Below, piece after piece: positions 1 to 54,530 of a stretch of DNA of 64,000 bases. The notes beneath the pieces were generated by a model. That model was not told the origin of the DNA. It saw only the letters and a list, made by a program, of their open reading frames with translations, and did no database searches. This stretch comes from Gekko japonicus (lineage: Eukaryota). The stretch is taken from assembly GCF_001447785.1 (NCBI RefSeq), contig NW_015161404.1, forward strand, positions 2,470,187 to 2,534,186, read 5' to 3'. The translations under genes and the position numbers were made by a program. Each line of letters starts with the position of its first letter. Positions within the stretch are counted from its first letter, which is position 1.

Positions 1-802
1 CTGTAAATGTAACTTGTAACTTGCTCACTCTGTGGCTGAGAAACCTGGACAGGTGGCTCTTTCACATGCTGCCTGTGGATTTTCTGAGCACTGGTCCCCA
101 ATGTGGCAGCTGCCACATATTGCATAAAACTGGGCAATGCCTGTTGCCTGTTAGTACTTGTTACTGACAGGTGGTTCCAACCTTAAAACAGCTGCTGCCA
201 GAGGAACTGGAGGACAAGTGATATATGAGTCCCCCTGAGCTGTGGGCCAGCCTCATGCCAGGGATGGAAGTAAAGGGCCCATCCTTTCCACACACCTCCA
301 CAGCTTCTGCACTCCCATCCAAGCACCCATGTGGTTGCCAGGAGGAGAGCAAGCTGGCAGAGAAAAGTGAATAAAATGACCATCACCATGGCAGCCACTG
401 GGGAAAAGAGCAAACTGGGGTGGTAATGGTTTTACTCCCATTTCTCTATGGCCAGCTTGGTAATCTTACTGTCTAGCTTCAGTTGCTGTGCCTTATGCTG
501 GGAAGAGAGAGGGGTATTGTATGCATGTTGGTGGGATGGCATATAGGGCATACATGACCATGTGGCTCTTTTGGCTGATGATAATTGCACAGCCCCTATG
601 AAATATGGGTTCAAAGCCACGTTTTAAAATTTTAAATGAAGTATTTGTTTGGAATTGTTTTTCAAACAGTGCATAACAGCTCCTTTAAGAATTCCAACAC
701 ACACTTTTGGAGAAGAATCTGGACCCAGTTTTCTTAGACACTCTTGAGTTCTAGTTCGCATCCCAACCATTCCAACAACATTAATGAGGTTTTCTGACTT
801 AC

Positions 803-987
803 CTTGGATCTGGATGCTGTTTGACTGAAAAGAGGAATTTGTTAATGGCTCATATGGCTTCATGTGGGTTCCCACAATTTGCTGGGTACTGGAAGGCTGC
901 AGTGTCCTTTTCTGATTCAAGGGTGGGGGAGCAGGAATTCTTCTGGGGCTTATATGGTGAGGAGAAAAGGGAGCAGTAGCTGAATAT
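803..987 (-). CDS. GLIS3: GLIS3 coding exon (R-YSATAPFSPHHISPRRIPAPPPLNQKRTLQPSSTQQIVGTHMKPYEPLTNSSFQSNSIQIQ-G)
   Basis: Acceptor aattccccag|A, donor CAAG|gtaagt; 185 nt, phase 2-1; SPHHISPRR and TNSSFQ motifs. Remaining 3' exons lie left of the window. Confidence 0.93.
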
Positions 988-2800
988 CTGGGGAATTAAG
1001 GAAAAAGCCAACATTAGAAGCAGACAACTTTGTTGCCTTAAAGCTAATATCTAAATAATTTTATCCTCCATATATTCTTTTAATGCTATAAAAATGAATT
1101 TTTGCACTTGCTCCTGCCTGATGGATTGAGCTCAAGGATTAGTTCCTGTCTTGGGGAGTGGCAACAAGAGAGATTGTCAGGAAGTGATACAAAAGACTTC
1201 TCCTCAAACTGAACTATACTTCTGTTTAACTTGAGATATAGAAAGTATATTGGATCTTAATGATGACTTACAGGCACCATAATGACATTCAGGTACTTTT
1301 TCTCACAATGCTTTGGGAAAAGCTCACACAAACAAGGCCTGCTGGGATTTGAGTAAGCAATTATACAAACATTTTGGAATCAATCTCAATCCCCAAATAT
1401 TTAGGGCTCCTGCTGTGTATGTCGACATATTAATACAGCTAGAAGTTTAAGTTCTACAATTGCAGGTTTGCAGATCTTTCAGGGGAATAGAAAAAAGGTG
1501 GGATTGCTTTTTACATTTTTGCATTCACATGGAAAAATTATTGATTTGCTGCCAGGGATCAGAAACAATGCACAGGTGGGTGCCTTTTTTGTGTGAAGAA
1601 TTCTGGGATATTATCCTCTGTGTTTTGCAAAATTCACCTGTGAAATCTAATCAATGAAAAATGGCTTTAACTGTCAGCCAACAACACAGGGGAAAAATCC
1701 TTTTGAAAGCTTTACATAAAAGGACAGTTTTAAAGATTTCAAATTGGATTTAACATCTAAGAAAAGCTTCCCAGTGATAATTCAGCATTTTGTATAGCTA
1801 GGCCGGTCTTCTTTTTAGCAGACTGTAGTGGTCTTTATAATGATTTATGAATCGCTTCATGAATTCCTGGCTTACTCAAGTTGGTGACTATAGCATCTAC
1901 TTATACAGCCTGCCCATCTCACAAAAGAGAAACTTGGCCTTGTTTCAATCCAGATTTGTCCCCAAATAAATCACAGAGTGTTACTGGGGGAACAGCAAAT
2001 TAAATTTTGTGTATGCAACAATCGATACCAGCTTGTAACCACCGGGAAACTGCCATCAGAGATTTTGCCCATGGCCTGAAGTCCATGCTTGCAATAAGAA
2101 CCCAGATATTTTTTTTAAAGTCCTGCTTTGTACCTCATTCTGACTTCAAAAGCTAAGCAGACCAGATCATTCAAAGGTTTTATCCAATTCTCTATTGCCA
2201 AGAGCCTTCAAATGAAGTTAGTGATGGGGAATGGGCATGTGTGGCTGCAGTAAGGAATTTAATTAAAGTCCAGGAATACTGCATAAGACAGAAGCATGGT
2301 GCCAAAGTCAGGAAAGAAGATGGGAATGAAATAAGACAATAAAATGTCAGAATAACTTTCAGTTTGGAATGTTTCCAACACTGCTGAACATTGGAAATAA
2401 TTTTGTTTGGATTTGGAGAATTTACTATGTTTCCAAATAAGGGTGTGGCTCAGGTTGGATTGTGATGAATAAATAGGTGACTGCACATTGCTACTACTTA
2501 ATTCCAGGTTCAGCCCTTACTGTCAGCCAGATCTGTGATTAGATATTTTGATGCTTCCAGTTTTATTGCACAGGAGCCCTTGGTGCTGCAAAATTGATTA
2601 GTACTGCACCACTGGATACAGTCTTTTCAACCTTTTCCCCTCACATTTTAGAAATTTCACTCACAAATGTATATGTAAAGCAGCTATTTATCCCACAGAA
2701 GGAAAATATTGGATACCTCGTATTAACTGTGACTTGCTAGTTATGATTCTGCTGACACCAAAGTTCATTTTCCCAGGCATCAGGAAAATCAGTGAGAGGA

Positions 2801-3388
2801 AACAGTTGCCAACTCTGTTGGGAAATTCTTGGATATTTGGGGGTAGATCCTGGGGAGGGTATGGGGAGGGAAGGGACCTCAGCAGATATAATACAATGGA
2901 GTCTACCTTCCAAAGCAGACATTTTCTCCAGGGGAAGTGATCTCTTGAGATCAATTGTAATTATGGAATATCTCTAGGACTCAGGACTATTTTTGGGCAG
3001 GAACGCACAGGAACGGAATTCCGGCTGGCTCCCAAGTTGGCCACACCCAGCAGGAACTCATTAGCATAATAGGCCACACCATAATAGCCCACACCCAGTG
3101 GCAGGAAGTCATTAGGATTGGCTACATTAGGTGTGTGTGGACTAACATGCAAAGGAGTTCCTGGTACAAAAAAAGCCCTGGGTTTTGACAACAAACAAGG
3201 TAAACAGAATAAGAAGCAAAAGGTGGGTGTGGCTGGATGACCACACTTCTGGTAACATGGCGTGTGTGGCCTAATATGCTAATGAGCTGTGCTGTCAGGG
3301 GTGTGGCCTATTATGCTAATGAGTTCCTGCTGGACTTTTTCTACCAAAAAAGCCCTGCTAGGACTTACCTGCAAGATGGCAACCTTAG
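2801..3388. mobile_element. Decayed hAT-type MITE (TAGGGTTGCCA family), host of a nested MITE
   Basis: Degenerate ends cagttgccaac ... gatggcaacctta; body resembles the copy at 60540-60765. Confidence 0.7.
2982..3357 (+). mobile_element. hAT MITE (CAGGGCTTTTT TIR family)
   Basis: TIRs caggactattttt ... aaaaaagccctg; perfect 8-bp TSD CTAGGACT at 2974-2981 and 3358-3365. Confidence 0.9.
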
Positions 3389-4324
3389 ATTAATCAGTTA
3401 ACCCAAATGACCACTATGTTGTTCAAACCCCCCCCCCCATTAGCTCATAGTTTGGGAGCGCCCCATGATCATAAATAAGCATGAATTTTGCTTATTTGAG
3501 TTATGCTGTCATCTGGGTCGATGCATGTATTACCCAGGCAGGGAAGTGGTCATGCAAGTGAAGAAAACTAACAGTAACTTTGTTTAGGATTGCACTGTGG
3601 GACCCTTACGGCAGAATTGTCTATATACTCTGACACATAAATGCAGATCCAGAGAAATGCACATAATAGTTGTTTCCCTTCAAGGATTTATCCTCTTGGG
3701 TTTCCTATTGCTTTACAGAGTACTTTTCTTTCCGCAAGAACATAATCATTTCAAAACTTTGGGCTATGCTCAATTCTTACAGAAGAGAGCAGAGACAGCA
3801 GAAATTCCTATTGTAAGAAAGGAATAGCTTCTCATTCTGTCATAGGCAAGAAGTTAAGCTGGTTCAAAGATCCCTATGAAGAGTTTCTCTCCAGGCCTCA
3901 AAGGAAGGTCTTTCAGTTACAGTGGAAAGCTTCCAGTGCCTGTTTCCTTTGTTTCAACCTCTGCTCTTCTTTGGATTATTCCTCTATACTTGGAAGCCAT
4001 TCTTGTCTGGTTAGAACTTTCTGGCAAGTAAAGTGGAACTAAGATAACTGTTTTGTGTTTCCAAAGCTTCTTAATATCCTCTGGGTTTTTGTCTCTGATT
4101 CTGTTAAAAAGGTTTCATTTTCCCAGCTTCCCAAGAATAGTGATGTTTCCTCAGATAAGAATAGTTCAGTCCCTCCTGAGTCTTCCCTGCAGTGGAATGT
4201 AGTGCCTCTCAAAATCAGGTTGAAAAAAGTTCTGGGAGATAGATATTCAATGGCAGTGCACATTTATTATTGCAGTTGTAGAAGAAAACACAAGAATGTA
4301 ATATGAATAAGGAATCTGTGCAGT

Positions 4325-4835
4325 TAGGGTTGCCAGCTCTGGGTTGGAGAACTCCTAGAAATTTGGAGGGTGGAGCCTGGGAAGGGTGTGCTTGGAGAAG
4401 CTCAGCAGGCTGCCTTCAAAGCAGCCATTTTCTCCAGGGGACCTGATCTCTCTCGTCTGGAGATCAGTTATAATTAGGGGCAGGGCTTTTTTGGTAGAAA
4501 AAGCCCAGCAGGAACTCATTAGCATAATAGGCCACACCCAACAGCAGAAACTCATTAGCATATTAGGCCACACCCCAACAGCGCAGCTCATTAGCATATT
4601 AGGCCACAAACCCCATGCCTTCCCTTGGCTTGCCCGGGCAAGCCCCCCTTGAAGGGAAGGGAAGGGAAGGCAGTTTAAACTGCCTTCCCTTGGGTTGCCC
4701 GGGCGCCCCTTCCCTCTCTAGCCATGCACACAGAGGTTTTGGCTGTAGTGGGCGTGGCCAACTCTGAAGCCAGCCGGAACTCCATTCCTGTGCGTTCCTG
4801 CCCCAAAATAGCCCTGATTAGGGGAGATATCTCTC
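4325..4835. mobile_element. Truncated hAT MITE (TAGGGTTGCCA family), host of a nested MITE
   Basis: Left TIR tagggttgccag; body like 60540-60765; right TIR not found. Confidence 0.7.
4481..4816 (-). mobile_element. hAT MITE (CAGGGCTTTTT TIR family)
   Basis: TIRs cagggcttttt ... aaaatagccctg; perfect 8-bp TSD ATTAGGGG. Confidence 0.9.
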
Positions 4836-5149
4836 AGTTATATACTTGTGAACATTGTTTGCAATATCTTATGGTTTTAAACAAATAAAATGAACAAAAA
4901 TGAACACAATTGAAAGAACATTTAAAACAACATAGGATTAAGAAGGAAGAGAGACTGCAAAGAGAGTGTACAGTGAGAAAACATGAAATAAACTTCACTG
5001 AACTCCATGGGATTTATTTCATTACTCCCCCTCAGCATGGCAAACCAGTGAGAAAAACTGTCCCACACAGACACACATTGTGAAACGAACTGAGAAAGGC
5101 TCACTAATGCTTAAGGGAACAGAGCAAGAAAAAACCTCTGTAGGAATCC

Positions 5150-5355
5150 AGATTTTCTTATTTTAACGCTTTTCTTAACTGAAAAATGTAGTAGCTGCAA
5201 TTTTGAGATATGTATTCGTGGGAAAGCTTCTAGCTACTGTTGAAGTTCCAATATCTGCACAGTTGGCACTGGTGGAAGCTGTGTGATATATATTTTCCTG
5301 TATTTCCATTATGTTTTGTGCTTTCATGCCAATAAAGGTTTTGTGTGTGTGTGAT
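5150..5355 (+). mobile_element. Probable RTE-X-like LINE 3' fragment
   Basis: Ends ccaataaagg plus (tg)n; 3' architecture resembles 61972-62330. Confidence 0.35.
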
Positions 5356-5709
5356 ATGTTTATTGCATACATTACATGGTCTGCTTCCCCTTTGTTACTA
5401 CAAGTGGCCTGTCTCGATATTGGAGGAAATTGACTATGAGACAGAGGAGGCCAGAAGGGTACAAGAGATTACACCTATATATACCAAGGTCCAGTTCAGA
5501 ATGAAGACTCCGGATTTAAAGAGTGTTCAGTGGTTTTTTTTAAAGAATACCTCTGCATACAATCACGCTAAACAATCAAAATACACATACAATCCAGAAC
5601 TAAGAAATAAAGAGGTGATGATAGAGATATTTGAGGAGCAGTTATAGGGGTCATACTACCTGTCCAGATGTCTGTGTAGAAGAAAGCATTAACAGTCAGT
5701 GTTCCATGC

Positions 5710-6245
5710 TGTCATGATCTGGGCTGTGCCACCAGAGGCCTACTAGGCTCAGGGATCCTGGCTAGCAGTAGGTGAGGCTGGGCCTACAACTCCCAGAAGC
5801 CCCTGAGAGGTTTTGGAGCCAAAATTGACCAATAGGAAAAGAGGAGGGCTTGGAATAAAAGATCTGGAGCAGCAGGAAAAGCAGTTCTTCTTCACAGAGG
5901 GCAGAGCCAGAAGGAAGGCTGCTGCAGGGAAGAGACCCTCATCCTGAGGGAAGGGTGAGTAGTCTAAGGCCACTGCAAATAGAGAGCTAGGGACACTACA
6001 TATTTAGATGCCTTAGGGCATTTGATTGCTTTTCTTTTCACCCACTTACTGTTATAATTCTGCACCTTGTTTGTTTGACCTCTCCTAAAATAAACTATTT
6101 TTATTGTTCACTCTGCCTGGTCCTCACATCTATTATTCAGTCAAAGGGAGGTCTAAAGGCCTGGGAAGGTGCTCTGGGCCTTCTCAGAGGAGCCTGGAAC
6201 CAGAGTGGTGGCAGCCTCAGGTGACACCCCACCTGAGCTGTGACA
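5710..6245 (+). mobile_element. Solo LTR (Gypsy/ERV type)
   Basis: TGTCA...TGACA termini, 5-bp TSD CATGC, internal AATAAA. Confidence 0.85.
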
Positions 6246-7781: not shown

Positions 7782-9085
7782 ATCATAGAATCATAGAGTT
7801 GGAAGGGACCCCAAGGTCATCTAGTCCAACCCCCTTCACAAAGCAGGAAATTCACAAATACCTCACCCCCACACCTCCAGTGACCACTGTTCCACGCCCA
7901 GAAGATGACAAAAACCTCCAGGATCTCCAGCCAAACTCGCCTGGAGAAAAATTGCTTCCTGACCCCAAAGTGGCGATCAGCATTTCCCTGGGTGTGTAAG
8001 AAAGGGACACAAGAACTAAACACTAAGGCAACCCTGCCTGCCCTCCCTCTCATGATCTGGCTAAGTTCACACAATCAGCATTGCTGTGAGATGGCCATCC
8101 AGCTTCTTTTTGAAAACCTCTAAAGAAGGAGCCCACCACCTCCCGAGGAAGCCTGTTCCAATGAGGAACCACTATAACTGTTAGGAAGATCTTCCTAATG
8201 TTTAGTCGAAAACCCTTCTGATTTAATTTCAATCTGTTGGTTCTATCTGATCTTCTGGGGCAACAGAAAACAACTCTGTACCATCCTCTATATGACAGCC
8301 CTTTAAGTACTTGAAGACAGTTATGATATCACCTCTCAGTTGTCTCCCCTCCAGGCTAAACATTCCCAGCTCCTTCAACCTTTCCTCATAGGACTTGGTT
8401 TCCAGACCCCTCACCATCTTCGTTGCCCTCCTCTGGACACGTTCCAGCTTGTCTATATCCGTCTTAAATTGTGGTGCCCAAAACTGAACACAATACTCTA
8501 GGTGAGGTCTAATCAGAGCAAAGTAAAGCGACACCATCACTTCACGTGATCTGGACACTATACTTCTGTTGATACAGCCCAAAATTTCATTTGCCTTTTT
8601 AGCTACTACATCACACTGCTGACTCATGTTCAGTGTATGGTCTACTAAGACCCCTAGATCCTTTTCACACATACTACTGCCAAGACAAGTCTCCCCCAAT
8701 CTATAATTATGCATTTGATTTTTCCTGCCTAAATGCAGAACTTTACATTTACCCCCATTGAAATTCATTAAATTTCTTTTAGCCCAATTTTCCAGCCTGC
8801 CGAGATCATCCTGTATCCTGACTCTGTCTTCTACCATATTTGCTGCCCCTCCCAGTTTAGTATTATCTGCAAATTTAATAAGCAATCCCTCTATTCCTTC
8901 ATCCATATCATTGATAAAGCTGTTGAACAAAACAGGTCCAGGACAAATCCTTGAGGCACTCCACTTGTCACTGCTCTCCAAGAGGATGAGGAACCATTAA
9001 TAAGCACTCTTTGGGTGCGATATGTCAACCAGTTACAGATCCACCTAAGAGTAATAGGATCCAAACCACATTTTACTATCCTTAT
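7782..9085 (-). mobile_element. 5'-truncated CR1 LINE (end of RT domain plus 3' UTR)
   Basis: GVPQG, KFADNTKL and HLEYCVQFWAP motifs with frameshifts; (ATTCTATG)n tail. Confidence 0.95.
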
Positions 9086-15792: not shown

Positions 15793-16550
15793 AGAATTAC
15801 GGAAGGGGCCACAGTGGCCAACTAGTCCAACCCCCTAAAGTATCCCTGACAAGCAGGCCCATAGCCAGGATTGTCAGGCTTGTGGGGCACTTTTTNNNNN
15901 NNNNNNNNNNNNNNNNNNNNNNNNNNNNNNNNNNNNNNNNNNNNNNNNNNNNNNNNNNNNNNNNNNNNNNNNNNNNNNNNNNNNNNNNNNNNNNNNNNNN
16001 NNNNNNNNNNNNNNNNNNNNNNNNNNNNNNNNNNNNNNNNNNNNNNNNNNNNNNNNNNNNNNNNNNNNNNNNNNNNNNNNNNNNNNNNNNNNNNTCCAAG
16101 CTTCCCCAATGGTTTTGACCCTTTCTACTTTTCCTTTCAGTTTTTTCTTCACATGTCCCCTCATATCAGAGAAGTTACCCCTTTTAAAGTTAAAAGTGGT
16201 TGTGTCGGTCTTTTTGGGCAACTCCCTATTTATACAAATGTTGAACTTAATAACATTATGGTCACTGTTCCCAAGTGGTGCAATCACTTTTACATCTCTC
16301 ACCAGGTCTTGGGCATTAGTTAGGACGAAATCCAGGATCGCCTCTCCCCTGGTAGGTTCTGTGACCATCTGCTCCATAGCATAATCATTAAGAGTATCTA
16401 GAAACTCAATCTCTTTTTCCCGACTAGAACACATATTGACCCAATCAATGTGTGGGTAGTTGAAATCACCTATTATGACAGGTTTTTGTCTAGCCGCTAT
16501 CTTTAATTCATTAATCATTTTATAATCCTCCTCTATCTTTTGATCTGGTT
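15793..16550 (-). mobile_element. CR1 LINE: 3' UTR, assembly gap, endonuclease region
   Basis: IIGDFNYPHIDW...LGNSDHNVI AP-endonuclease motifs; N gap at 15896-16094. Confidence 0.9.
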
Positions 16551-17438
16551 TATGATAAATCCTACAATATTATTATTGTAGCTTAATAATGACAAAGTTA
16601 AACCCATTATATGGCTTACTATCCTCTGGATAAAAAACCGAGAAGGTATTTCAAAGGTGCTGTGGAAAGTAGATTTATTTTTAAAGCATGCCCTACATGT
16701 TTCAAGCCACCTTTTTTATCAAGGTTATTTCTCTATGTTTTACATAAAGAGACCAGTTTTTTTCTTTTATATGTGTTCTTTCCTGTGTGCCCTAGGAAAG
16801 CTGAATGCAGATACAAGAAGAAAGCTTGTCTTTTATGTAAATAATAAAGGACAGTGGCTTGAAACATGTTGGGTGAACTTTACAAATAAATCAATTTTCC
16901 ACAGCTTCTTTGTACTTTCCCAGACACAATCTAGCACAGAGTTACTTAAGGTGACTGACATCAATTACCTTAAGAATGCCTACCTGAGTTTAGATTGTAG
17001 TCTTCATATTTACCTAGCTTTAAGGGCCCAAAGCACTAAAAGTAAAAAAGTGACACATCCCCAGGACATTATTAACCTCAGAGCTTTAGTACTTTATGAA
17101 TATAATTATATGAATGATGAGTGATGATGTCACTTTGAGATGCCATATGCAATATTTGCTATCCCATTTCAAAAGGGAGTACAGACTGACTGAAATTGGG
17201 ATATAGTCTAGGAAAATCCTAAACCAATTATTGTAAAGAGTTGTCACTTATTCCAGATCATCATAGGTTGACTGTAGTTCCATACAACCCAACATTTTTT
17301 TTAAAATCCACTCTCCAAGTACCTATAGACTGTGATGGATTTCTCTTTCTAAAACCACAGCTCAAAATATTCCTTTTTTTTTTTTGAAGGAACACTCCTG
17401 ATGAGGTGAGATATGGGTAGAAACATTCATGGCCTTAC

Positions 17439-25525: not shown

Positions 25526-25667
25526 CTGTATAAATGTCATGCACAGGTCCTGGTGATCGTCTGATGGTGCTATCTGAAGTGTCATGTGGAGATGGGGATG
25601 GCTGGAGAGGATGGATAGTGAGACAGTCATTGAGGATGTCTTGGTCAAGCTCTGTACTCGAGCGCAA
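25526..25667 (-). CDS. GLIS3: GLIS3 coding exon (LRSSTELDQDILNDCLTIHPLQPSPSPHDTSDSTIRRSPGPVHDIYT)
   Basis: Acceptor gtgtttcag|TTG, donor ACAG|gtatag; 142 nt, phase 0-1; LRSSTEL..DCL..RSPGP resembles GLIS3 rather than GLIS1. Confidence 0.95.
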
Positions 25668-26308
25668 CTGAAACACAAGTGCACACACACAAAAAGAAAA
25701 TCATAGTTGTGAGGAAAGAACCAGCATAAATTGATGGCTGAGATCAGCAAATTGCATGAAAGACAGTCTGGTATTTAAGAGAGTACAAAATAAGTATTCT
25801 CAACATAATAATCATAATAGTAGCTTCTATAAAGAATTTTAGCGTGTTCAGAGTACTTCACATACATTGTGCTTTGACCACACTTTAAAGGACAGACTGA
25901 GCTACAATAACCCCTCAAAAATAAATCATAATTTATTGGAAACTGTAGAATATACTAGTGGTGAACTTCCAGTTTTGTCACAGTATGTCTCAAGCATGGT
26001 ACCGGTGTAACTTATCCTTGTAGTGGTGGTGGTGGTGATTGACATGTCTTGTTTAAAACTGTAACTCCTAATGGGGGAAAGTATTTTAAATAAATAATAT
26101 GACTTACACAAACAGAGTTCCTGAACAAGGGCACACGAATTCAGCAAGCTGCAGCACTCCTGGCTTGATAATTTTATCTCCAAACCCGAATAAAGGAATT
26201 GGTACTTGGTGAGAAAATGTTCCCCATGGTATATTTTGAATACCAGCTATATTCTTTTCCATTGATAATGTGCAGCTCCCTCTGTCTGCCAAGAATAGAG
26301 CTGACTAC

Positions 26309-27093
26309 GAGGGCTTCCGGTCTGGCTAAGATGGAGGACTGAAGCGTTTCGCGATCGTGCGAAGCGAGCGACGGCCACTTTCGACAGTTTGGGCAATATA
26401 CAGCCCAACACATCACTCCCCAGCGAGGGGGGGGGACAAGCAGGCAGCAGCGCCCTAGAGGGAGTGTGAGGTTGGCGTAATCCAGCTTCGGAAGAAGCTG
26501 AATTGGGCTTTGACCTCCTCCCACGAAGAAGGCAAGTGCCAAGCAACTCTATAGTGGCCGATCGAGCCGGGATACCGGCATAAATTCTTCGTCAGCAGAC
26601 TTCTTTGAAGAAGGACAACAACTGTGAGTTAAAAGAAACAATGCGAAACCCGTTTTGAACGTGCTAGATAACAAAAACGTGCCGCTTACCTGAACTGAGT
26701 TTGGAGTCAATTTGAATTAAGCGGTTGAGCGGAAAATGAATAGTAAATCCCAGAAATCCGATTCCGGAGAGAAAAAAGTTGATTGAAGCCTTTAAAAACT
26801 GTAAAAACGCTTATTGTTTAACATTCCTGTGGTGAAGATGGAGCCGTGTGCGCAACTGTAAAATCGAAACTCACGAACAATAGCGTGGGAAGAGCAGGCT
26901 GGTGTCACAAAGAAAGAGGTCCGTGTGAAACATCCAGGAAGTTGAATTCCTAGACGGGCATTAGCGAAAGGAAGACAGTGGAACTTTTAAAGGTGCCGGA
27001 CCGGAAACTGGGAATGGGGTAGACAATTGATAGAATGAAATGTTTTACATGTTGTATTCCTGAGAAAATAAAAAATTTGTTTACCAAAAAAAA
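26309..27093 (+). mobile_element. ORF-less L1-type non-autonomous retroelement (or retrocopy)
   Basis: Perfect 18-bp TSD AAGAATAGAGCTGACTAC; 5' gagggcttccgg..aagatgg; AATAAA and poly(A); CpG-rich. Confidence 0.8.
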
Positions 27094-27173
27094 AAGAATA
27101 GAGCTGACTACATGAAGGCACTAGGAAGCATGTAGAATGAATAAGAATGAGTGAAATCATGACCTAGGAAATC

Positions 27174-27568
27174 CAGGGCTATTTTTGGGCAGGAACGCAC
27201 AGGAACGGAGTTCCGGCTGGCTCCCAAGTTGGCCACGCCCAGCAGGAACTCATTAGCATAATGGGCCACACCCAACAGCAGAAACTCATTAGGATTGGCT
27301 ACATATGGGGTGTGTGGCCTAACATGCAAAAGAGTTCCTGCTACAAAAAAGCCCTGGGTTTTGACAACAAACAAGGTAAACAGAATAACAAGCAAAAGGT
27401 GGGTGTGGCTGGATAACCACACTTCTGGTAACATGGGGGTGCAGCCTAATGTGCTAATGAGCTGTGCTGTCAGGGGTGTGGCCCAATATGCTAATGAGTT
27501 CCTGCTGTTGGGTGTGGCCTATTATGCTAATGAGTTCCTGCTGGGCTTTTTCGACAAAAAGAGCCCTG
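27174..27568 (+). mobile_element. hAT MITE (CAGGGCTTTTT family), close relative of 2982-3357
   Basis: Same TIRs and body; imperfect TSD ggaaat(a)c. Confidence 0.88.
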
Positions 27569-27905
27569 GGAAATACTCTGTGCTGACTTTCCCTATGAAA
27601 CATTTTGGAATATTGACTACAATTGTCATAGAGTCCATGTGAGGATTATGAAGAGCCCAGATCTTGTTACGGCTAGCTCAGATAAGACTAGAAATATCAA
27701 AGTTTTTATTAGAACTAACCAATATATCACAAAGTTGTAAACAAGCTTTAGAGTGCTCCAGAACTCTTTGACAAACCACTGGTTTCCATTTGAAAGGTTT
27801 GAAAGTGAATAAAGGATGTATTGCAGGTTTAAGTGCCTTAGGTGATATTGAGGTTAGGATTAGGTAATGCTGGATGCAAGACGGGAATGGTCCTGCTCTG
27901 ACCTG

Positions 27906-37576: not shown

Positions 37577-39219
37577 AACATAAGAACATAAGAACATAAG
37601 AGACGCCAATGTTGGATCAGGCCAAAGGCCCATCCAGTCCAACACTCTGTGTCACACAGTGGCCAGAAATACCAGTGCCATCAGGAGGTCCAGCAGTGGG
37701 GCCAGGACATTAGAAGCCCTCCCCCTGTTGACCCCCCCCCAAGCACCAAGACAGAGCATCACTTGCCCCAGAGCCCCTAGCTATACCTTGTGGCTAATAG
37801 CCACTGATGGACCTCTGCTCCATATGCTTATCTAATTCCCTTTTGAAGCCGTCCATGCTTGTAGCACCCACCACTTCCTGTGGCAGTGAATTCCATGTGT
37901 TAATCACTCTTTGGGTGAAGAAAAAGCTATAATATCCTTTTTAAGGTGTGGTGCCCAGAACTGCACACAGTATTCCAAATGAGGTCTCACCATTGATTTA
38001 TATAGGGGCATTATTATATTGGCTGATCTGTTTTCAATACCCTTCCTAATAATCCCCAGCATAGCATTGGCCTTCTTTATTGCAGTCACACACTGTCTCG
38101 ACATTTTCAGTGAGTTATCCACTACAACTCCAAGATCTCTCTCTTGCTCAGTCTCTGCCAGTTCAGACCCCATCAATGTGTATTTATATTTAGGATTTTT
38201 GGCTCCAATGTGCATCACCTTGCACTTGGCCACATTGAACCCCATTTGCCATGTTGACGCCCACTCGCCCATCCTTGACAGATCCCCTTGGAGTGCCTCA
38301 CAATCCTCACTGGTTTTCACCACCCTGAACAACTTTGTATCATCCGCAAATTTAGCCACTTCACTGCTTACTCCCATCTCCAAATCATTAATGAACAAGT
38401 TAAAAAGCAGTGGACCAAGTACTGATCCCTGCGGTACCCCACTGCTTACCACCCTCCACTGAGAAAATTGCCCACCTACACTCACTCTCTGTTTTCTATG
38501 AACTAGCCAGTTTTTGATCCATAAAAGGACTTGTCCTTCTATCCCATGATTTTTGAGCTTACTTAGGAGCCTTTGATGAGGAACTTTATCAAAAGCTTTC
38601 TGGAAGTCAAGGTAAATAATATCTATTGGATCCCCCTTGTCCACATGTTTGTTCACCCCCTCAAAGAACACTAATAGGTTAGTGAGACAAGATCTTCCCT
38701 TACAGAAACCGTGCTGAGTCTGCCTCAATAGGTTTTGTTCATCTATGTGCCTACTAATTCTTTCCTTAATAATGGTTTCCACCAATTTACCCGGTATCGA
38801 CGTCAGACTGACTGGCCTGTAATTTCCCGGATCTCCTCTGGAACCCTTTTTAAAGATGGGAGTGACATTAGCTACCTTCCAATCCTCAGGAATGGAGGCA
38901 GATTTTAAGGAAAGATTACATATCTTTGTCAGGAGATCCACAAGTTCACATTTGAGTTCTTTCAGAACTCTCGGATGTATGCCATCTGGGCCTGGTGATT
39001 TTTCAGTTTTTAAGTTGTCTATCAGTTTTAGGACCTCCTCTCTCTCTGACTCAGGTCTTTCAACACCCCTCCTGAAATCAGTGGTTCTGGAGTGGGCAAG
39101 CACTTCTCATCTTCCACAGTGAAGACGGAGGCAAAAAATGCATTTAGCTTCTCAGCCATTTCCCTATCATCCTTCAATACTCCTTTTACCCCTTGGTCGT
39201 CCAAGGGCCCCACTGCCTC
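37577..39219 (-). mobile_element. Young 5'-truncated CR1 LINE inserted between the DIRS RT and RNase H regions
   Basis: 399-aa open RT frame (KSPGPDG, YLDFQKAFDKV, GVPQGS, FADDTKL); (TTCTTATG)3 tail. Confidence 0.97.
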
Positions 39220-40854
39220 TTAAGAGGTTCTTAACAAGGAGATTCACCCTGTGGGACTACCATGTTAAAGTCTGAAAAATGTTTGTGAGGATTGTACTGG
39301 AAAAAGAACTATCCAGGTCATCAGTGGCATAAACCTAACAGCCTTTCTTGCTGTTTGGAAATAGCTTATTAAAATTCTGACAATCCTGTCCTTGGGAGGG
39401 TAAGCTAACTGAGGACAGTGCCCGCAAAAGTTATGCTTAGTGGGAGAGAGAACGGCCTTCTCTAAGTTCACCTGAAGGCTTAAATCTTGAAGGCTGTTCA
39501 GAATTAAGGAGCTGTGGGCCAACAGGATATCCCTGGATAGAGCTTTAATTAACCCATCATCTGGGTAAGGGAAGAGTTTGCACCGCTTCTCCCTGATTCG
39601 TGCAACCAACACTGCCACAAACTTTGTAAATACCCTTGAGCCTGAGGAGAGACCAAACAGGAGGACAGTGTACTGGAACATCTGGTGTCCACACAGGAAG
39701 AAATTTTCAGAAATCTTTCTTTAGTGAGATATGAAAGTAAGCATCTCAAAACTTTATGACTGTGAACAAAACATTTAATAGCAGGAAGATATCTCTGAGA
39801 GATTTCATGCAAAACTTTTTTGTAACTACAAGCTTATTTAAGAAACATAGCACCAGAATGGTCTCTGTGTTAGGGCTCCTTTTACTAAGAAGGAATTGAC
39901 CTCCTGGAGGAGTAAAACAGGTGGACTCTACAACATAATCATGAAGCACAAAAGACAAAACCCATTTGACTAATAACCTCCCAGTTGTGAGTAAAGTAGG
40001 CCAGGTAGTCACCAAATGGATGGTGAGATGGACAGTCAAAATCCCTGCTTGTTCAACCCTTTAGGATCTTTGGGAGAACAACAGCCTTCCCTAGGCTTAG
40101 AGTAATATATTTTTTGACATGGTTGAGGTTTGGGGACTGAATGTGCATCTTGGGATGGTGGGTGAGGCTGTTGTGTAGTATATCTGAGGTACCTGTACCT
40201 GCCTGGGAAAACTCTGCTTTAAAGGATTGAGGTCAGTTGGAGACCTGGTTGCCATGCGATCCTCTTTAATCTTTTTAAGGGCAGAATCTGTGGTTGAGCT
40301 AAAAAGGTCAGTCCCCTCAGAAGGTAAATCATCTATCCCAGCTGTATTATAAAGATCTAGGGCTGTAGATTTCAACCAGGCATGCCTTCTCAAGGTTATC
40401 ACAGGGCTGTTGACTTGGAAGAGCAATCAGACACATAACAGGCTGTCTAAATTTGTTGCGTAGACACCCTGAGGGGCTCTGTCTACAGTAATTTATTCCC
40501 ACATCTTTTCTCTTCTGGGCTCAGGTCAAGACAAGGACCAAGATTTTTTTCACAGGAAGAGCTGGCACCTTCCCATTATGATTTTATAACTGCTCACATG
40601 GAAAGCCAAGGCAGAGAAGACATAAACCTTACACCCTAAGGTATCAGGTTTCCTGCTCTCCCTATCGAGCAGGGCACAGTGAGGAGGCCCTCCTNNNNNN
40701 NNNNNNNNNNNNNNNNNNNNNNNNNNNNNNNNNNNNNNAGCAGGATGAGTGAAAGGGAAAGTAGAACCCTCCTAACCCTCCTGTTTGGTTTTGTACATGT
40801 TTTCCAACTTTTTTGCACTTTGTACAGATGATTGTTTGGATCACATTTCTTTTG

Positions 40855-43800
40855 CACGTCCTGTATGCCTCGGAGCGCCATCTCCCAGTAGCCTGGATGA
40901 GTGCTGGCCATAGGCCCAAGCTGGCGGCTGTGGTTGCTGTCCCAATACAGAAGGAATGGGGCCCAAACTCCCAGGGAGGAAGGCCAAATAAGACCCCTGC
41001 AAACTGATAACTCAGAGGAGAGCTGTTCCTGTGAACAATGAGGGGACCCGTTATGTGGGGCTGCACCACTAGAAATGCTTTTGTAGCCTGCACCAGGCAT
41101 GGGCCTCCCCCCACCCAAGGACCCAGTCTCAGGTGAATCTCCCACACCTGCTGGTTGGTCTTAAACCTCCTGATGATTAAGGAAACCCCCTCAGCACCAA
41201 TTTAGATGTCCTGGACCCCCAAGGGGTGATGGGCTGTGTCTGTTCTAGAATTCGCCATTAGCTCCCCCACCCTCAGTGCGCCAGAAAAGGCCAAGGTAAA
41301 AGCCACTTCAAACCAAGTGGCCTCATAAGGAGACCAGCACAGGCTTGGGAGTTTATACACTAGCTGCGCCAGAGTATCGAACATCAAGGGCCTGCATGGG
41401 TTGAGTGCTCTAGCAGAGAGCCTCCTCCACTCTTCTACTACCCTGTGAGTTGGGAAGCCATTGCATGGGTCAGTGAAGCCATGAGCTTTTCTAAAGAATG
41501 AAATGGCAGCGATGTGGCCCTGTATGGACTTGGGGGCAAAGCCTTGTTCCTGTAAGTGGGCTATGTACCGAAGAACCCACTCTGCCATCACCAGGAGGTA
41601 TCTGGACCCCCTGTGCCTGCAGAGAAAGCCAAGAAGAGTATGAGTAAAAGGTTGAAGGGGGAACTGAGTGGCATATTCTCTGCATTATGATGTATTCCCA
41701 AGTTCCCAGAGCGCCTCAGGAAATGGGTCCGGATAGAGGTTGGCATCCAGTGCCAGGCTGCAAAAACCTCTTCTCTTGCAGGCAAGAAAAGGCATCTACA
41801 ATGCTGTTACTGATGCCTGCAACATGGTAAGCTGAAAATATTATGTCAGTGGACAAACACACATGAACAAGCCTGAGTACCAGGGCCATAACCCGCTCTG
41901 ATTGTGAGGTTGCTTATTCACCACCCTCACCACTGCTTGGTTATCACACCAGAATCTGACCCTCCTGTTACGAAACTGTTCCCCCCAGAGAACTGCTGCC
42001 ACTGGGATGGGGAACAATTCCATGAAGGTAAGGTCCCACTGTATACCCCACCCTGCCCAGATGGCTGGCCACCTCTGGGCGCACCAGTGGCTGTTGTAAT
42101 ACACATTGAACCTGGTGCCACCCACCACGTCAGAGTGTATTTTCATGCTGTTAGTCAAATCAAGTGGTTGCTACCAAATGGTCACCCCATTATACTCAGA
42201 CTCAGAGATCCTCCTTCATGCCCTTGATTATTCTTATGTGGTGGTGGCAAGCGGAGGCACCCACTGTGGCCCATGTCAGGTGCACACAGAAAGCCCTCCC
42301 TGGTATCACCACTCAACAGATGAAGTTAAGGTGTCCCAGAAGTGATTGTAGCTCCCTCAATGTACATTTAGGGCAAGCAAGCACCAGGGTGATAACGGCC
42401 TGCAGTGCCAGCAGCTTGTCTTCTGGCAGACGGGATGCCCCTTCCAATGAATCTAATTGAATGCCCAAATAGGTTAACTGTGTAGAAGGGCACTCAGTCT
42501 TATCATGAACCAGCAGGACTCTCAGTTCCCCAGGGCCTGGAACACCTCCAAATGCTCCATGCAAACTGTACTATCCACTGAACCCACAAAAAGAAAATTA
42601 TCTAGATAATGGGTGATGTGCAGAGTGTTAGCCCAGGCCTTCACTACCCATTTTAGGAAGGTGCAAAATGCCTCAAAGGCTGCACTAAGCACTCCGTTTC
42701 CACAAGCCCTCACCAACCCAACCATGTGATCAAAAAATCCATATTTAACTGAGCAAAGTTCAGGGGGAGTGGCATCGTTAACTGAGGATCCCTTAGGATA
42801 TGACAAATGATGGACGAGTCTGAACTCGCCTAGAACCTTCTTGGGCACAACCCCTAGATGGGAGATCCGGAGGTTGGGCAATGGAGGGGCGTTGAAGGGG
42901 CCTGCAATTCAACCTGCAGTGCACTCCTTCATGATTTTTGTGGCTGCAACCTTGGGCTTCTCCCTAGTGGATTTGAGGTTACTGACATCAGTTGCAGTTC
43001 GCAGACTGGTAAAAGGAATAGGGAACCCAGAGGTAAAGCCATTTTTAAGATAAAAGGCGGCAGCCCTCCATGGGTCCAGGAGGGGGCAAAGGGCCTGCTG
43101 ACAGAGGTGATAGCCAAGGATGAGTAGTTGGGCTGCTGTTCATTCCCTGGCTGAGCTGCCAGAGGAAGAAGTGCTGGTAGACACTCCCCCCTCTATGAGC
43201 GGCACATTAGAGGAAAGCCTACTGCTCTGAAATGGCTGCTGAGCATTGGCTGAGTGCGAACAGGACACCCTGGGGTGACACCCTAAGCAGAGCTCACAAC
43301 TGTGGTCACATTTACAGTGGGCCTCTGGCAATGCCCCTGATTAAACTCTCAGCATAACCTGCGTGCCGGGTCCCATCAAGCGGCCCATGGCTGCTTTGGA
43401 CAAGTTAGATTTCTCTTTTATTTTGGGTCCCACCACCAACCATATCTTATCATGCAACAAGTTTCACTGGGTCTTCTAACTGTGAGATGTCCACTTGTGG
43501 AAGGCCTCATCATATTCCAATGCAGCTGCCTCCTCAGCCAGTGCCCTGGCCTCTACATTGCCCAAGTGGTTATTTAAGTGCTACCCGCTGTCAGAATAAG
43601 CCACCATCATGACTCCCAGCCAGCCAATTGTGAAAGGTATGTTCAGCCTCCCTTTTTTGCTACCCATTCTGTCTTTTTTTGCAGCCTTTCCTGTCCGGCC
43701 CTCATCCCTGTCAGGCTTCAGCAAGGTGAAGACACTGACATAAAAGCCATCTAGTATTCATTCCCTAATCTTTCTGGAGAGGTGGATGCCAGGTGCGTCC

Positions 43801-50061: not shown

Positions 50062-50987
50062 ATTCAATGAACTAGATGAAGGGGTAGAAGGACTACTCAT
50101 TAAATTTGCTGATGATACCAAATTGGGAGGAGTAGCAGACACCCAAGAAGATAGAGTTAAAATTCAACAAGACTTGAATACTCTGGTGAAGTGGACAGTT
50201 GCAAACAGGATACAATTCAACAAAGATAAATGCACAGTATTACATCTGGGCCACAATAATGTCAAGCACAAATACTAGATGGGGGATACGTTTCTGGGCA
50301 GTAGTGTATGCAAAAGAGATCTTGGGGTAAGAGTGGACTGTAAAATAAATATGAGCAGTCAGTGTGATGCGGTGGCAAAAAGGGCAAATTCAGTCTTAGG
50401 TTGAATTAAAAGGGCCATAGCATTGAAATCGCAGGAAGTCATAGCCCCTCTGTATACTGCCTTGGTCAGGCCGCACCTTGAGTACTGTGCAGTTCTGGAG
50501 GCCTCACTTCAAAAAGGATGTGGACAAAATCGAGAGGGTGCAGAAGAGAGCGACGAGGATGATCAAGGGTCTGGAGACTGAGCCCTACGAGGAAAGGCTA
50601 AGGGCCTTGGGAATGTTTAGTTTGGAGATGAGGAGATTGAGGGGGGACATGATTGCTCTCTTTAAATATTTGAAAGGGTGTCATTTGGAGGAAGGCAAGG
50701 AGCTGTTCCAGTTGGCAGCAGAGGATAGGACCCAAAGCAACAAGTTTAAATTACATGCAGAAATGTATCGGCTGGATATTAGAAAAACCTTTTTCACAGT
50801 CAGAGTGGTTCAAAAGTGGAATCAGCTGCCTAAAGAGGTGGTTAGCTGACAGCTTTCACTGACAGCTTTCAAGAAGAGGCTGGATGAATATTTGTCAGAG
50901 ATGCTTTAGGCTGGTCCTGCATTGGGCAGGGGGTTGGACTAGATGGTCTGTGTGGCCCCTTCCAACTCTATGATTCTGTGATTCTAT
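50062..50987 (+). mobile_element. 5'-truncated CR1 LINE
   Basis: IKFADDTKLGG..., in-frame stops; ttctatgattctgtgattcta tail. Confidence 0.95.
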
Positions 50988-52623: not shown

Positions 52624-52734
52624 CTTTTTCCTAGCCTGTTGATCTTTGCAGGAATGGGCCTTTACATGCTTCCTTAAAGAACTCGGATCTGTGTATCGTT
52701 TGGTGCATCCAGGAATCTGGCAAGCATAAGGTTT
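52624..52734 (-). CDS. GLIS3: GLIS3 coding exon, zinc finger 5 plus basic tail ([37 protein letters not shown])
   Basis: Acceptor ttcttgtag|AAA, donor AAG|gtaata; 111 nt, phase 0-0; GLI/GLIS ZF5 motif [12 protein letters not shown]. Confidence 0.97.
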
Positions 52735-54368: not shown

Positions 54369-54530
54369 CGTATCCAGGTGCGTCCTCTGGTGCTTGGCTC
54401 GATCACTGGAATTGCTGAATGCTTTTTGACAGCCTGGTTGCTGGCAAAGGTAAGGCTTTTCTCCAGTGTGGCTCCTTAAGTGAATCTTGAGATTTTCTAG
54501 TCTAGAAAAGGCCTTCTTGCAGCCTTCAAA
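54369..54530 (-). CDS. GLIS3: GLIS3 coding exon, C2H2 zinc fingers 3-4 ([54 protein letters not shown])
   Basis: Hand translation; acceptor ttgtttcacag|TTT and donor ACG|gtaaga; 162 nt, phase 0-0; near-identical to the remembered vertebrate GLIS3 finger region. Confidence 0.97.

Follow-up and report, generated by a model that had tools for sequence, protein, structure and literature searches.

The insertion and its host locus

At 26291-27111 of the 64,000-nucleotide stretch of Gekko japonicus DNA analysed here (the window) lies a short L1-derived insertion. It sits antisense in a 27-kb intron upstream of the exon at 25526-25667 of a zinc-finger gene of GLI/GLIS type. C2H2 zinc-finger exons of GLI type, at 52624-52734 and 54369-54530, are on the minus strand like that exon, and we take the host gene to be GLIS3. 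The features of the locus are the following:

25526-25667, minus strand: spliced exon of the zinc-finger gene, the nearest host exon, whose acceptor and the L1 copy are about 640 bp apart
26291-26308, plus strand: 5' copy of the target-site duplication, 18 bp (100% repeat; a single copy at the empty site in run X1)
26309-27006, plus strand: CpG-rich piece of L1 5' UTR, its first 697 bases of roughly 1025 (identity to other L1 loci)
27006-27007, plus strand: join from L1 base 696/697 to base 5759/5760, with a 1-nt overlap; single in the assembly
27007-27085, plus strand: end of the L1 3' UTR (~79 bases), with AATAAA at 27067-27072 (full-length copies)
27086-27093, plus strand: short A tail of 8 A, the run continuing into the duplication
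27094-27111, plus strand: 3' copy of the target-site duplication (repeat; empty site in X1)

Most of what the original prediction had described here from the letters held up. A perfect direct repeat of 18 nt (100%) at 26291-26308 and 27094-27111 encloses the predicted 785 bp, and a single 18-mer stands at the empty allele; the insertion is antisense to the host gene at the predicted distance of about 640 bp from an acceptor; and it ends, as proposed, in AATAAA followed by 8 A before the second duplication. The many CpGs noted inside a CpG-depleted intron amount to 40 in the insert, an observed/expected ratio of 0.98 against 0.29 in the 2.3 kb upstream and 0.23 in the whole window. A sense open reading frame of 60 aa or more had been denied, and the plus strand of the insert indeed holds no ATG-started frame of at least 30 aa; the minus strand holds one of 35 aa. 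The motif AAGATGG lies at 26328-26334 and CCGGAA at 27001-27006, which we take to be YY1-like and ETS-like, respectively. Predicted folding of the copy (z -3.6, 20 shuffles) is a property of the CpG-rich 5' UTR, and a 12-nt inverted repeat is unpaired in the best fold.

The putative sense promoter of the copy would direct transcription away from the exon at 25526-25667. A donor-like site CAG/GTAAGC at 26690 of the host (minus) strand falls inside the L1 5' UTR and thus in every antisense copy, and an acceptor-like site was seen by eye at 27060 in the antisense of the A-rich tail region (13/20 pyrimidines, below the cut of the script). Provided that the short form exists, a candidate cryptic exon of 370 nt could lie between these two sites.

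Sixty bp after the L1 copy, a non-coding element of ~400 bp at 27172-27570 carries terminal inverted repeats and internal repeats of 36-37 bp, and looks like a miniature DNA transposon. It is present in very high copy, with a depth of up to ~27,000 in the DNA reads of run X22 against ~750 on the L1 5' UTR, and there is apparently another copy near 4355-4717. Fragments at 8229-8996, 15874-16569, 37904-39106 and 50445-50849 are presumably akin to CR1-type reverse transcriptase/endonuclease, and 39265-42908 is presumably a DIRS-type-like element.

The parent L1 family

A search of the source genome with the window element gave 2428 candidates, and the best 40 were scored. All of these but the window copy itself match its first ~700 bases only, at 99-100%; the first 697 bases are 99.3-99.7% identical to 29 other loci. 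The anatomy of the parent, read from 16 longer genomic stretches, is that of a 5.85-kb element with an ORF1 of 283 aa and an ORF2 of 1263 aa (the latter length in 11/16 stretches); in full-length copies the start of ORF1 is near base 1025, and 14/16 stretches have the final ~88 bases of the window insert at the 3' end of this L1. Bases are numbered throughout on a natural full-length copy (L038:180-6030). On this ruler the window copy consists of bases 1-697 and of 5759/5760 to the end, about 5060 bases being missing. Bases 698-5759, which are lost, hold the end of the 5' UTR, ORF1, ORF2 and the polypurine tract, and the right edge of the copy is the 3' edge of that G-rich tract, which is itself absent. 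The full-length copies thus bear out the anatomy originally proposed, an L1 5' UTR joined to an L1 3' end with both frames lost, and L1 5' UTR explains the whole of the 5' part. An ordinary retrocopy of a host transcript was rejected because both halves are L1.

The parental ORF2 has endonuclease and reverse transcriptase domains, and its best match among solved relatives is human LINE-1 ORF2p (E 4e-169); ORF1 matches human ORF1p weakly (E 0.019) and gave no Pfam match. The family is present in the three RNA runs X21, X23 and X24, and read depth in X22 suggests, roughly, some 900 copies of the 5' UTR. The window copy encodes nothing, and it depended on proteins translated from a full-length L1 RNA. 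When haplotypes were compared with a two-template chimera in mind, the 5' part of the window copy was nearest to seven copies whose 3' A run counts 4-5 A, against 6 in the window copy; a one-base slip explains this mismatch.

Along another full-length element (L032:196-6030), X22 depth is ~700 on the 5' UTR, ~250-550 on ORF2 and ~530-620 at the 3' end. The parent family seems either to have few 5'-truncated copies or to have a 5' UTR common to other subfamilies, with GC bias a possible contributor to these depths; loose ends of X22 reads at 954 and 991 of the same element touch on a shared 5' UTR. In the RNA, well-agreeing loose ends at L032:3131 and 4902 (77, 22 and 94 reads at 3131 in X21, X23 and X24) suggest that recombinant or related L1 subfamilies are expressed, and a joint from 1273 to 4878 occurs in 3 reads of X24.

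An empty allele and a recent insertion

A 261-bp contig of run X1 fuses 26137-26290 directly to 27094-27199 with one copy of the 18-mer between them. X1 differs from the window at 26222 and is therefore not the assembled haplotype. This empty site in another individual establishes that the 18-bp repeat is a true target-site duplication and that the insertion is polymorphic. The insertion in the window is thus real.

It is also young, as had been predicted: in addition to the empty allele in X1, only 2 differences in 695 positions separate the copy from its nearest full-length relatives. The proposed origin by L1-type target-primed reverse transcription agrees with the duplication, the A tail, the cleavage site and a parent whose ORF2 belongs to the L1 clade. 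The target was cleaved at CC/AAGAAT, an endonuclease-type pyrimidine/purine site that resembles other sites of the parent family. The length of the duplication falls within the 12-24 bp span of 31/33 clean full-length copies, and full-length copies have short A tails similar to the 8 A found here.

The internal join is single-copy

The original prediction had gone further and proposed a spreading, non-autonomous 'mini-L1' family, to be recognised by many ~785-bp copies that share the internal junction. One such copy was found. The 20-mer before the join has 302 exact matches, of which 295 continue as intact L1 and one is the window copy; two others break into other sequence (L049 and L050) and four are incompletely read. 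A probe on the right side has three matches, namely the window copy, an intact copy with a point variant and a third locus, L159, so that the join is single-copy from either edge (1/302 on the left, 1/3 on the right). The join itself has a single exact match in the assembly; a further copy was met neither among the best 40 of the 2428 candidates nor through exact probes on either side alone.

Exact probes miss diverged or unassembled copies, and members of a family with a fixed join could escape in this way; the 5' promoter region, the poly(A) signal and the A tail are kept, and would in principle permit transcription and movement in trans. A young family would not be diverged, however, and tens of copies should have yielded several reads, whereas the X22 reads have no joint at these places. 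We consider a spreading ORF-less mini-L1 family highly improbable. The data match instead a one-off deletion form of an L1, the case that the original prediction had set against its own proposal. The window copy appears to be a single internally deleted L1 copy of a known type, or perhaps just an assembly error.

Splicing and later deletion

The left edge of the join lies on GAA/GTGAGT (the shared A counted to the left), and the whole element has only 2 such GTRAGT hexamers. The chance that one break falls on such a donor is about 0.004, and L049 and L050 also break at 697/698, as might be expected of a SpIRE-like retrocopy that was spliced from this donor to a cryptic site in the 3' UTR and inserted with the proteins of another L1. 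At the 3' end of the removed piece, however, stands GA or GG instead of AG, and pyrimidines make up 22% of the preceding 40 bases. With 34 gap-free left edges sampled, the chance of finding one on such a donor becomes 0.13; GT..AG is seen in none of the 28 joins listed, and L049 and L050 do not land on an L1 acceptor. RNA from X21, X23 and X24 was searched on a full-length copy (3-12% of each run, a threshold of 3 reads, and a depth of about 355, 15 and 236, respectively, in the bin of the donor), and no joint at the 697/698 donor was among those listed. Canonical splicing was rejected, as AG and a pyrimidine tract are absent and no RNA joint was listed, and we regard a SpIRE-like origin as quite improbable.

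The overlap at the join is only 1 nt, accompanied by an offset GGAA match of 4 nt that lies within 2 bases of both edges. End joining at this match could have removed 5 kb from a full-length L1 after insertion, and would have left both ends and the duplication intact, as they are found. The match is offset by one base, though, and one as close would arise with a chance of 0.10. The copy is very young and polymorphic, and its 2 differences from the nearest relatives leave little time for such an event. A right edge in common with L159 further points to a stop set by the sequence, and deletion after insertion appears improbable.

Probable assembly errors at young L1s

The 5'-end probe of the family has 419 matches. 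Of the first 100 we examined 96, the window copy and three copies already examined being left out; with the window copy added back, the sample comprises 97 copies. Thirty-three of these are clean full-length elements, 12 contain N gaps, 35 have gap-free joins and 17 consist of the 5' part only, which leaves 64/97 that are not clean full-length copies in this assembly. Among the 35 gap-free joins, 22 share an edge with the N gaps: a left edge at 986/987 in 5, a right edge at 1059-1061 in 9, and a left edge at 1034 followed by a 278-bp piece in 8. The total lengths of these 22 copies cluster at 4772-5978 bp (median 5360). In some of the 5'-only copies the duplication follows directly, without an A tail, which is an impossible product of target-primed reverse transcription. 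Both the edge-sharing joins and these tail-less copies are best read as gap-filling errors, so that a full-length L1 can appear in this assembly as a mini-element without gaps. The 278-bp piece, which is not L1, comes after base 1034 in 12/97 copies and is identical in the 5 printed; followed by N or by a variable restart, it is a recurrent gap-filling chimera.

Copies with the 278-bp piece: L062, L065, L073, L075, L077, L093, L095, L101, L103, L108, L128, L144

The break of L049 and L050 at the left edge of the window copy has a chance of about 0.02. L049 resumes at 1060, and L050 has no L1 3' end and 50 repeated flank bases, found by exact scan (locus L153). Both breaks look like assembly errors, and since these copies belong to the suspect classes, they count against the window join. 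The 15 bases after the L049 break were considered as a subfamily feature and rejected, 4 of their 5 matches being unrelated.

The same reasoning extends to the window copy itself. Its site may hold a true full-length L1 of ~5.85 kb, perhaps heterozygous, of which the assembly wrote both ends together without N. The scarcity of clean copies, the fixed edges and clustered lengths of the 22 suspect joins, the 278-bp chimera and the tail-less 5'-only copies all speak for such a collapse. Overlaps of 0-2 nt at the joins fit plain concatenation, the window site is polymorphic, and L049 and L050 halt at the same left edge. A G-rich tract can stall sequencing and gap filling too. The window edges (696/697 and 5759/5760), however, lie off the recurrent stall points at 986, 1034 with its 278-bp piece and 1060, and the suspect joins are far longer than 785 bp, both of which support a real join. 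Moreover, N follows base 697 in at most 4/302 copies, the right edge recurs exactly at L159, and a join of the same style is confirmed in the raw reads of another animal (see below). Collapse is the chief rival of the reading that we prefer, and we hold it to be less likely than not.

Other internally deleted copies in raw reads

The raw DNA reads of X22 contain two non-GT-AG joins, from 105 to 2493 (4 reads) and from 142 to 2934 (3 reads). The first corresponds to one assembled copy (L154/L160) with a 19-bp duplication and, as in the window copy, a 1-nt overlap:

L160:491-3955 (G000:C13453), minus strand: internally deleted L1 supported by X22 reads, bases 3-106 plus 2493 to the end

A search of the assembly for the second gave 2 matches, neither of which is this join: one is unrelated and the other is an older copy that breaks from 142 to 3007. 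At the X22 coverage of about 0.8-fold, 3 reads are expected from a single homozygous locus in only 2% of cases; two read-supported joins at this depth therefore suggest many more such loci, on a very rough estimate about 100. In line with this estimate, 13/97 examined copies, including that in the window, have joins on no recurrent edge. One-off 5'+3' copies are common in this L1 family, each with its own join, and one of them is confirmed in raw reads.

A proposed template jump at a G-rich tract

The right edge of the window copy is shared with a 5'+3' copy at an unrelated locus:

L159:1224-1600 (G000:C16327): copy of ~370 bp with right edge 5759 and a 17-bp duplication

L159 has a left piece of bases 3-280 and its own duplication, and about 0.03 copies sharing edge 5759 are expected by chance; its 3' part includes a 23-base stretch unlike the L1 family, and no reads support it. 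Edge 5759 comes directly after a GGA-type G tract at 5745-5758. The G4Hunter window around the edge has the joint highest score in the element, and a quadruplex that spans the edge is predicted by ViennaRNA. Quadruplex motifs have been described in L1 3' UTRs and suggested to be able to block reverse transcription (PMC4407331, in the part accessible to us), and template jumping or switching by such reverse transcriptases is covered in the available text of PMC2912911 and PMC11702581.

The reading of the window copy that we judge best, at about an even chance of being right, is a template jump during insertion. With the target nick as its primer, the reverse transcriptase would have started on the A tail and read about 80 bases further, up to a stall at the G-rich tract of the L1 3' UTR. 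A jump, either within that L1 RNA or to a second one, would then have taken it to base ~697 of the 5' UTR, from where copying would have proceeded to the L1 5' end. Three points in this account are inferences: the presence of the join in the DNA, its origin at insertion and the causal role of the G-rich tract. Against a template jump stand, besides the probable assembly errors and the 1-nt overlap described above, two observations. None of the three matches to the right edge is a simple 5'-truncated copy starting at 5759, which counts against a strong stall site; and no read or contig was seen across 27006/27007, there being no carrier among the runs, as X1 has the empty allele and X2, X22 and X21 have zero depth on the left flank.

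A broader version of this reading is that the family routinely makes ORF-less 5'+3' copies by jumps of the reverse transcriptase at G-rich tracts, with a 3' edge at 5759 and left edges clustering near the G run at 116-135, and that the window copy is a founder caught before its spread. We consider this version unlikely.

Discussion

The parent family resembles LINE-1 in its 5' UTR, ORF1, ORF2, polypurine tract, A tail and duplications of 12-24 bp. Unlike an autonomous L1, the window copy is without bases 698-5759. Several known systems share part of this design. Human L1 SpIREs, as far as the accessible text of PMC5860796 describes them, are likewise shortened inside, end in an A tail between duplications, have a left edge on a GT donor in the 5' UTR and are often intronic and antisense, as the window copy is. 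Their introns end in AG and the same join recurs, whereas the join in the window is without AG and single-copy; and the SpIREs described in those parts of PMC5860796 are deleted within the 5' UTR or from 5' UTR to ORF1, whereas the window join reaches the 3' UTR.

The middle-deleted 5'+3' design is also that of RIME, NARTc, and the derivatives of Vingi, RTE (Bov-A) and R2 elements, which, in the portion of PMC5786205 available, are multi-copy families, whereas the window copy is a single L1 derivative. The same portion reports ORF-less bipartite LINE families only for the RTE, Ingi, Vingi and R2 clades. HAL1, also treated there (PMC5786205, in part), is likewise a non-autonomous L1 derivative without ORF2; unlike the window copy, which has no ORF, it keeps ORF1 and forms families. 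Comparable too are the template-switched or internally deleted L1 insertions of PMC11702581, bioRxiv 2024.08.27.596794 and PMC2912911, which in the sections accessible are likewise one-off products of target-primed reverse transcription with duplications. These sections describe short deletions tied to 5' inversions (the only kind, and always at inversions, in that of bioRxiv 2024.08.27.596794) or a switch between different RNAs, and none of the three describes a same-strand skip of 5 kb that leads from the 3' UTR into the 5' UTR. In print, as represented by open papers (without supplements, Repbase or Dfam), we found no ORF-less bipartite L1 family. A true family of this kind would be new, and the window gives one copy.

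Two messages follow for work on this genome and on this family. The first is a warning: the assembly writes many young L1s as gap-free 5'+3' 'mini-elements' with perfect duplications, and short non-autonomous elements drawn from it therefore need a copy count and read support. The second is that real 5'+3' copies occur in a very active L1 family. If such copies arise at G-rich stall sites, the family would make it possible to study how bipartite non-autonomous LINEs originate, and why L1 has apparently produced no ORF-less bipartite families. Should the window copy indeed be a founder, its promoter, poly(A) signal and tail would be the raw material of a bipartite L1, in a system that is still live.
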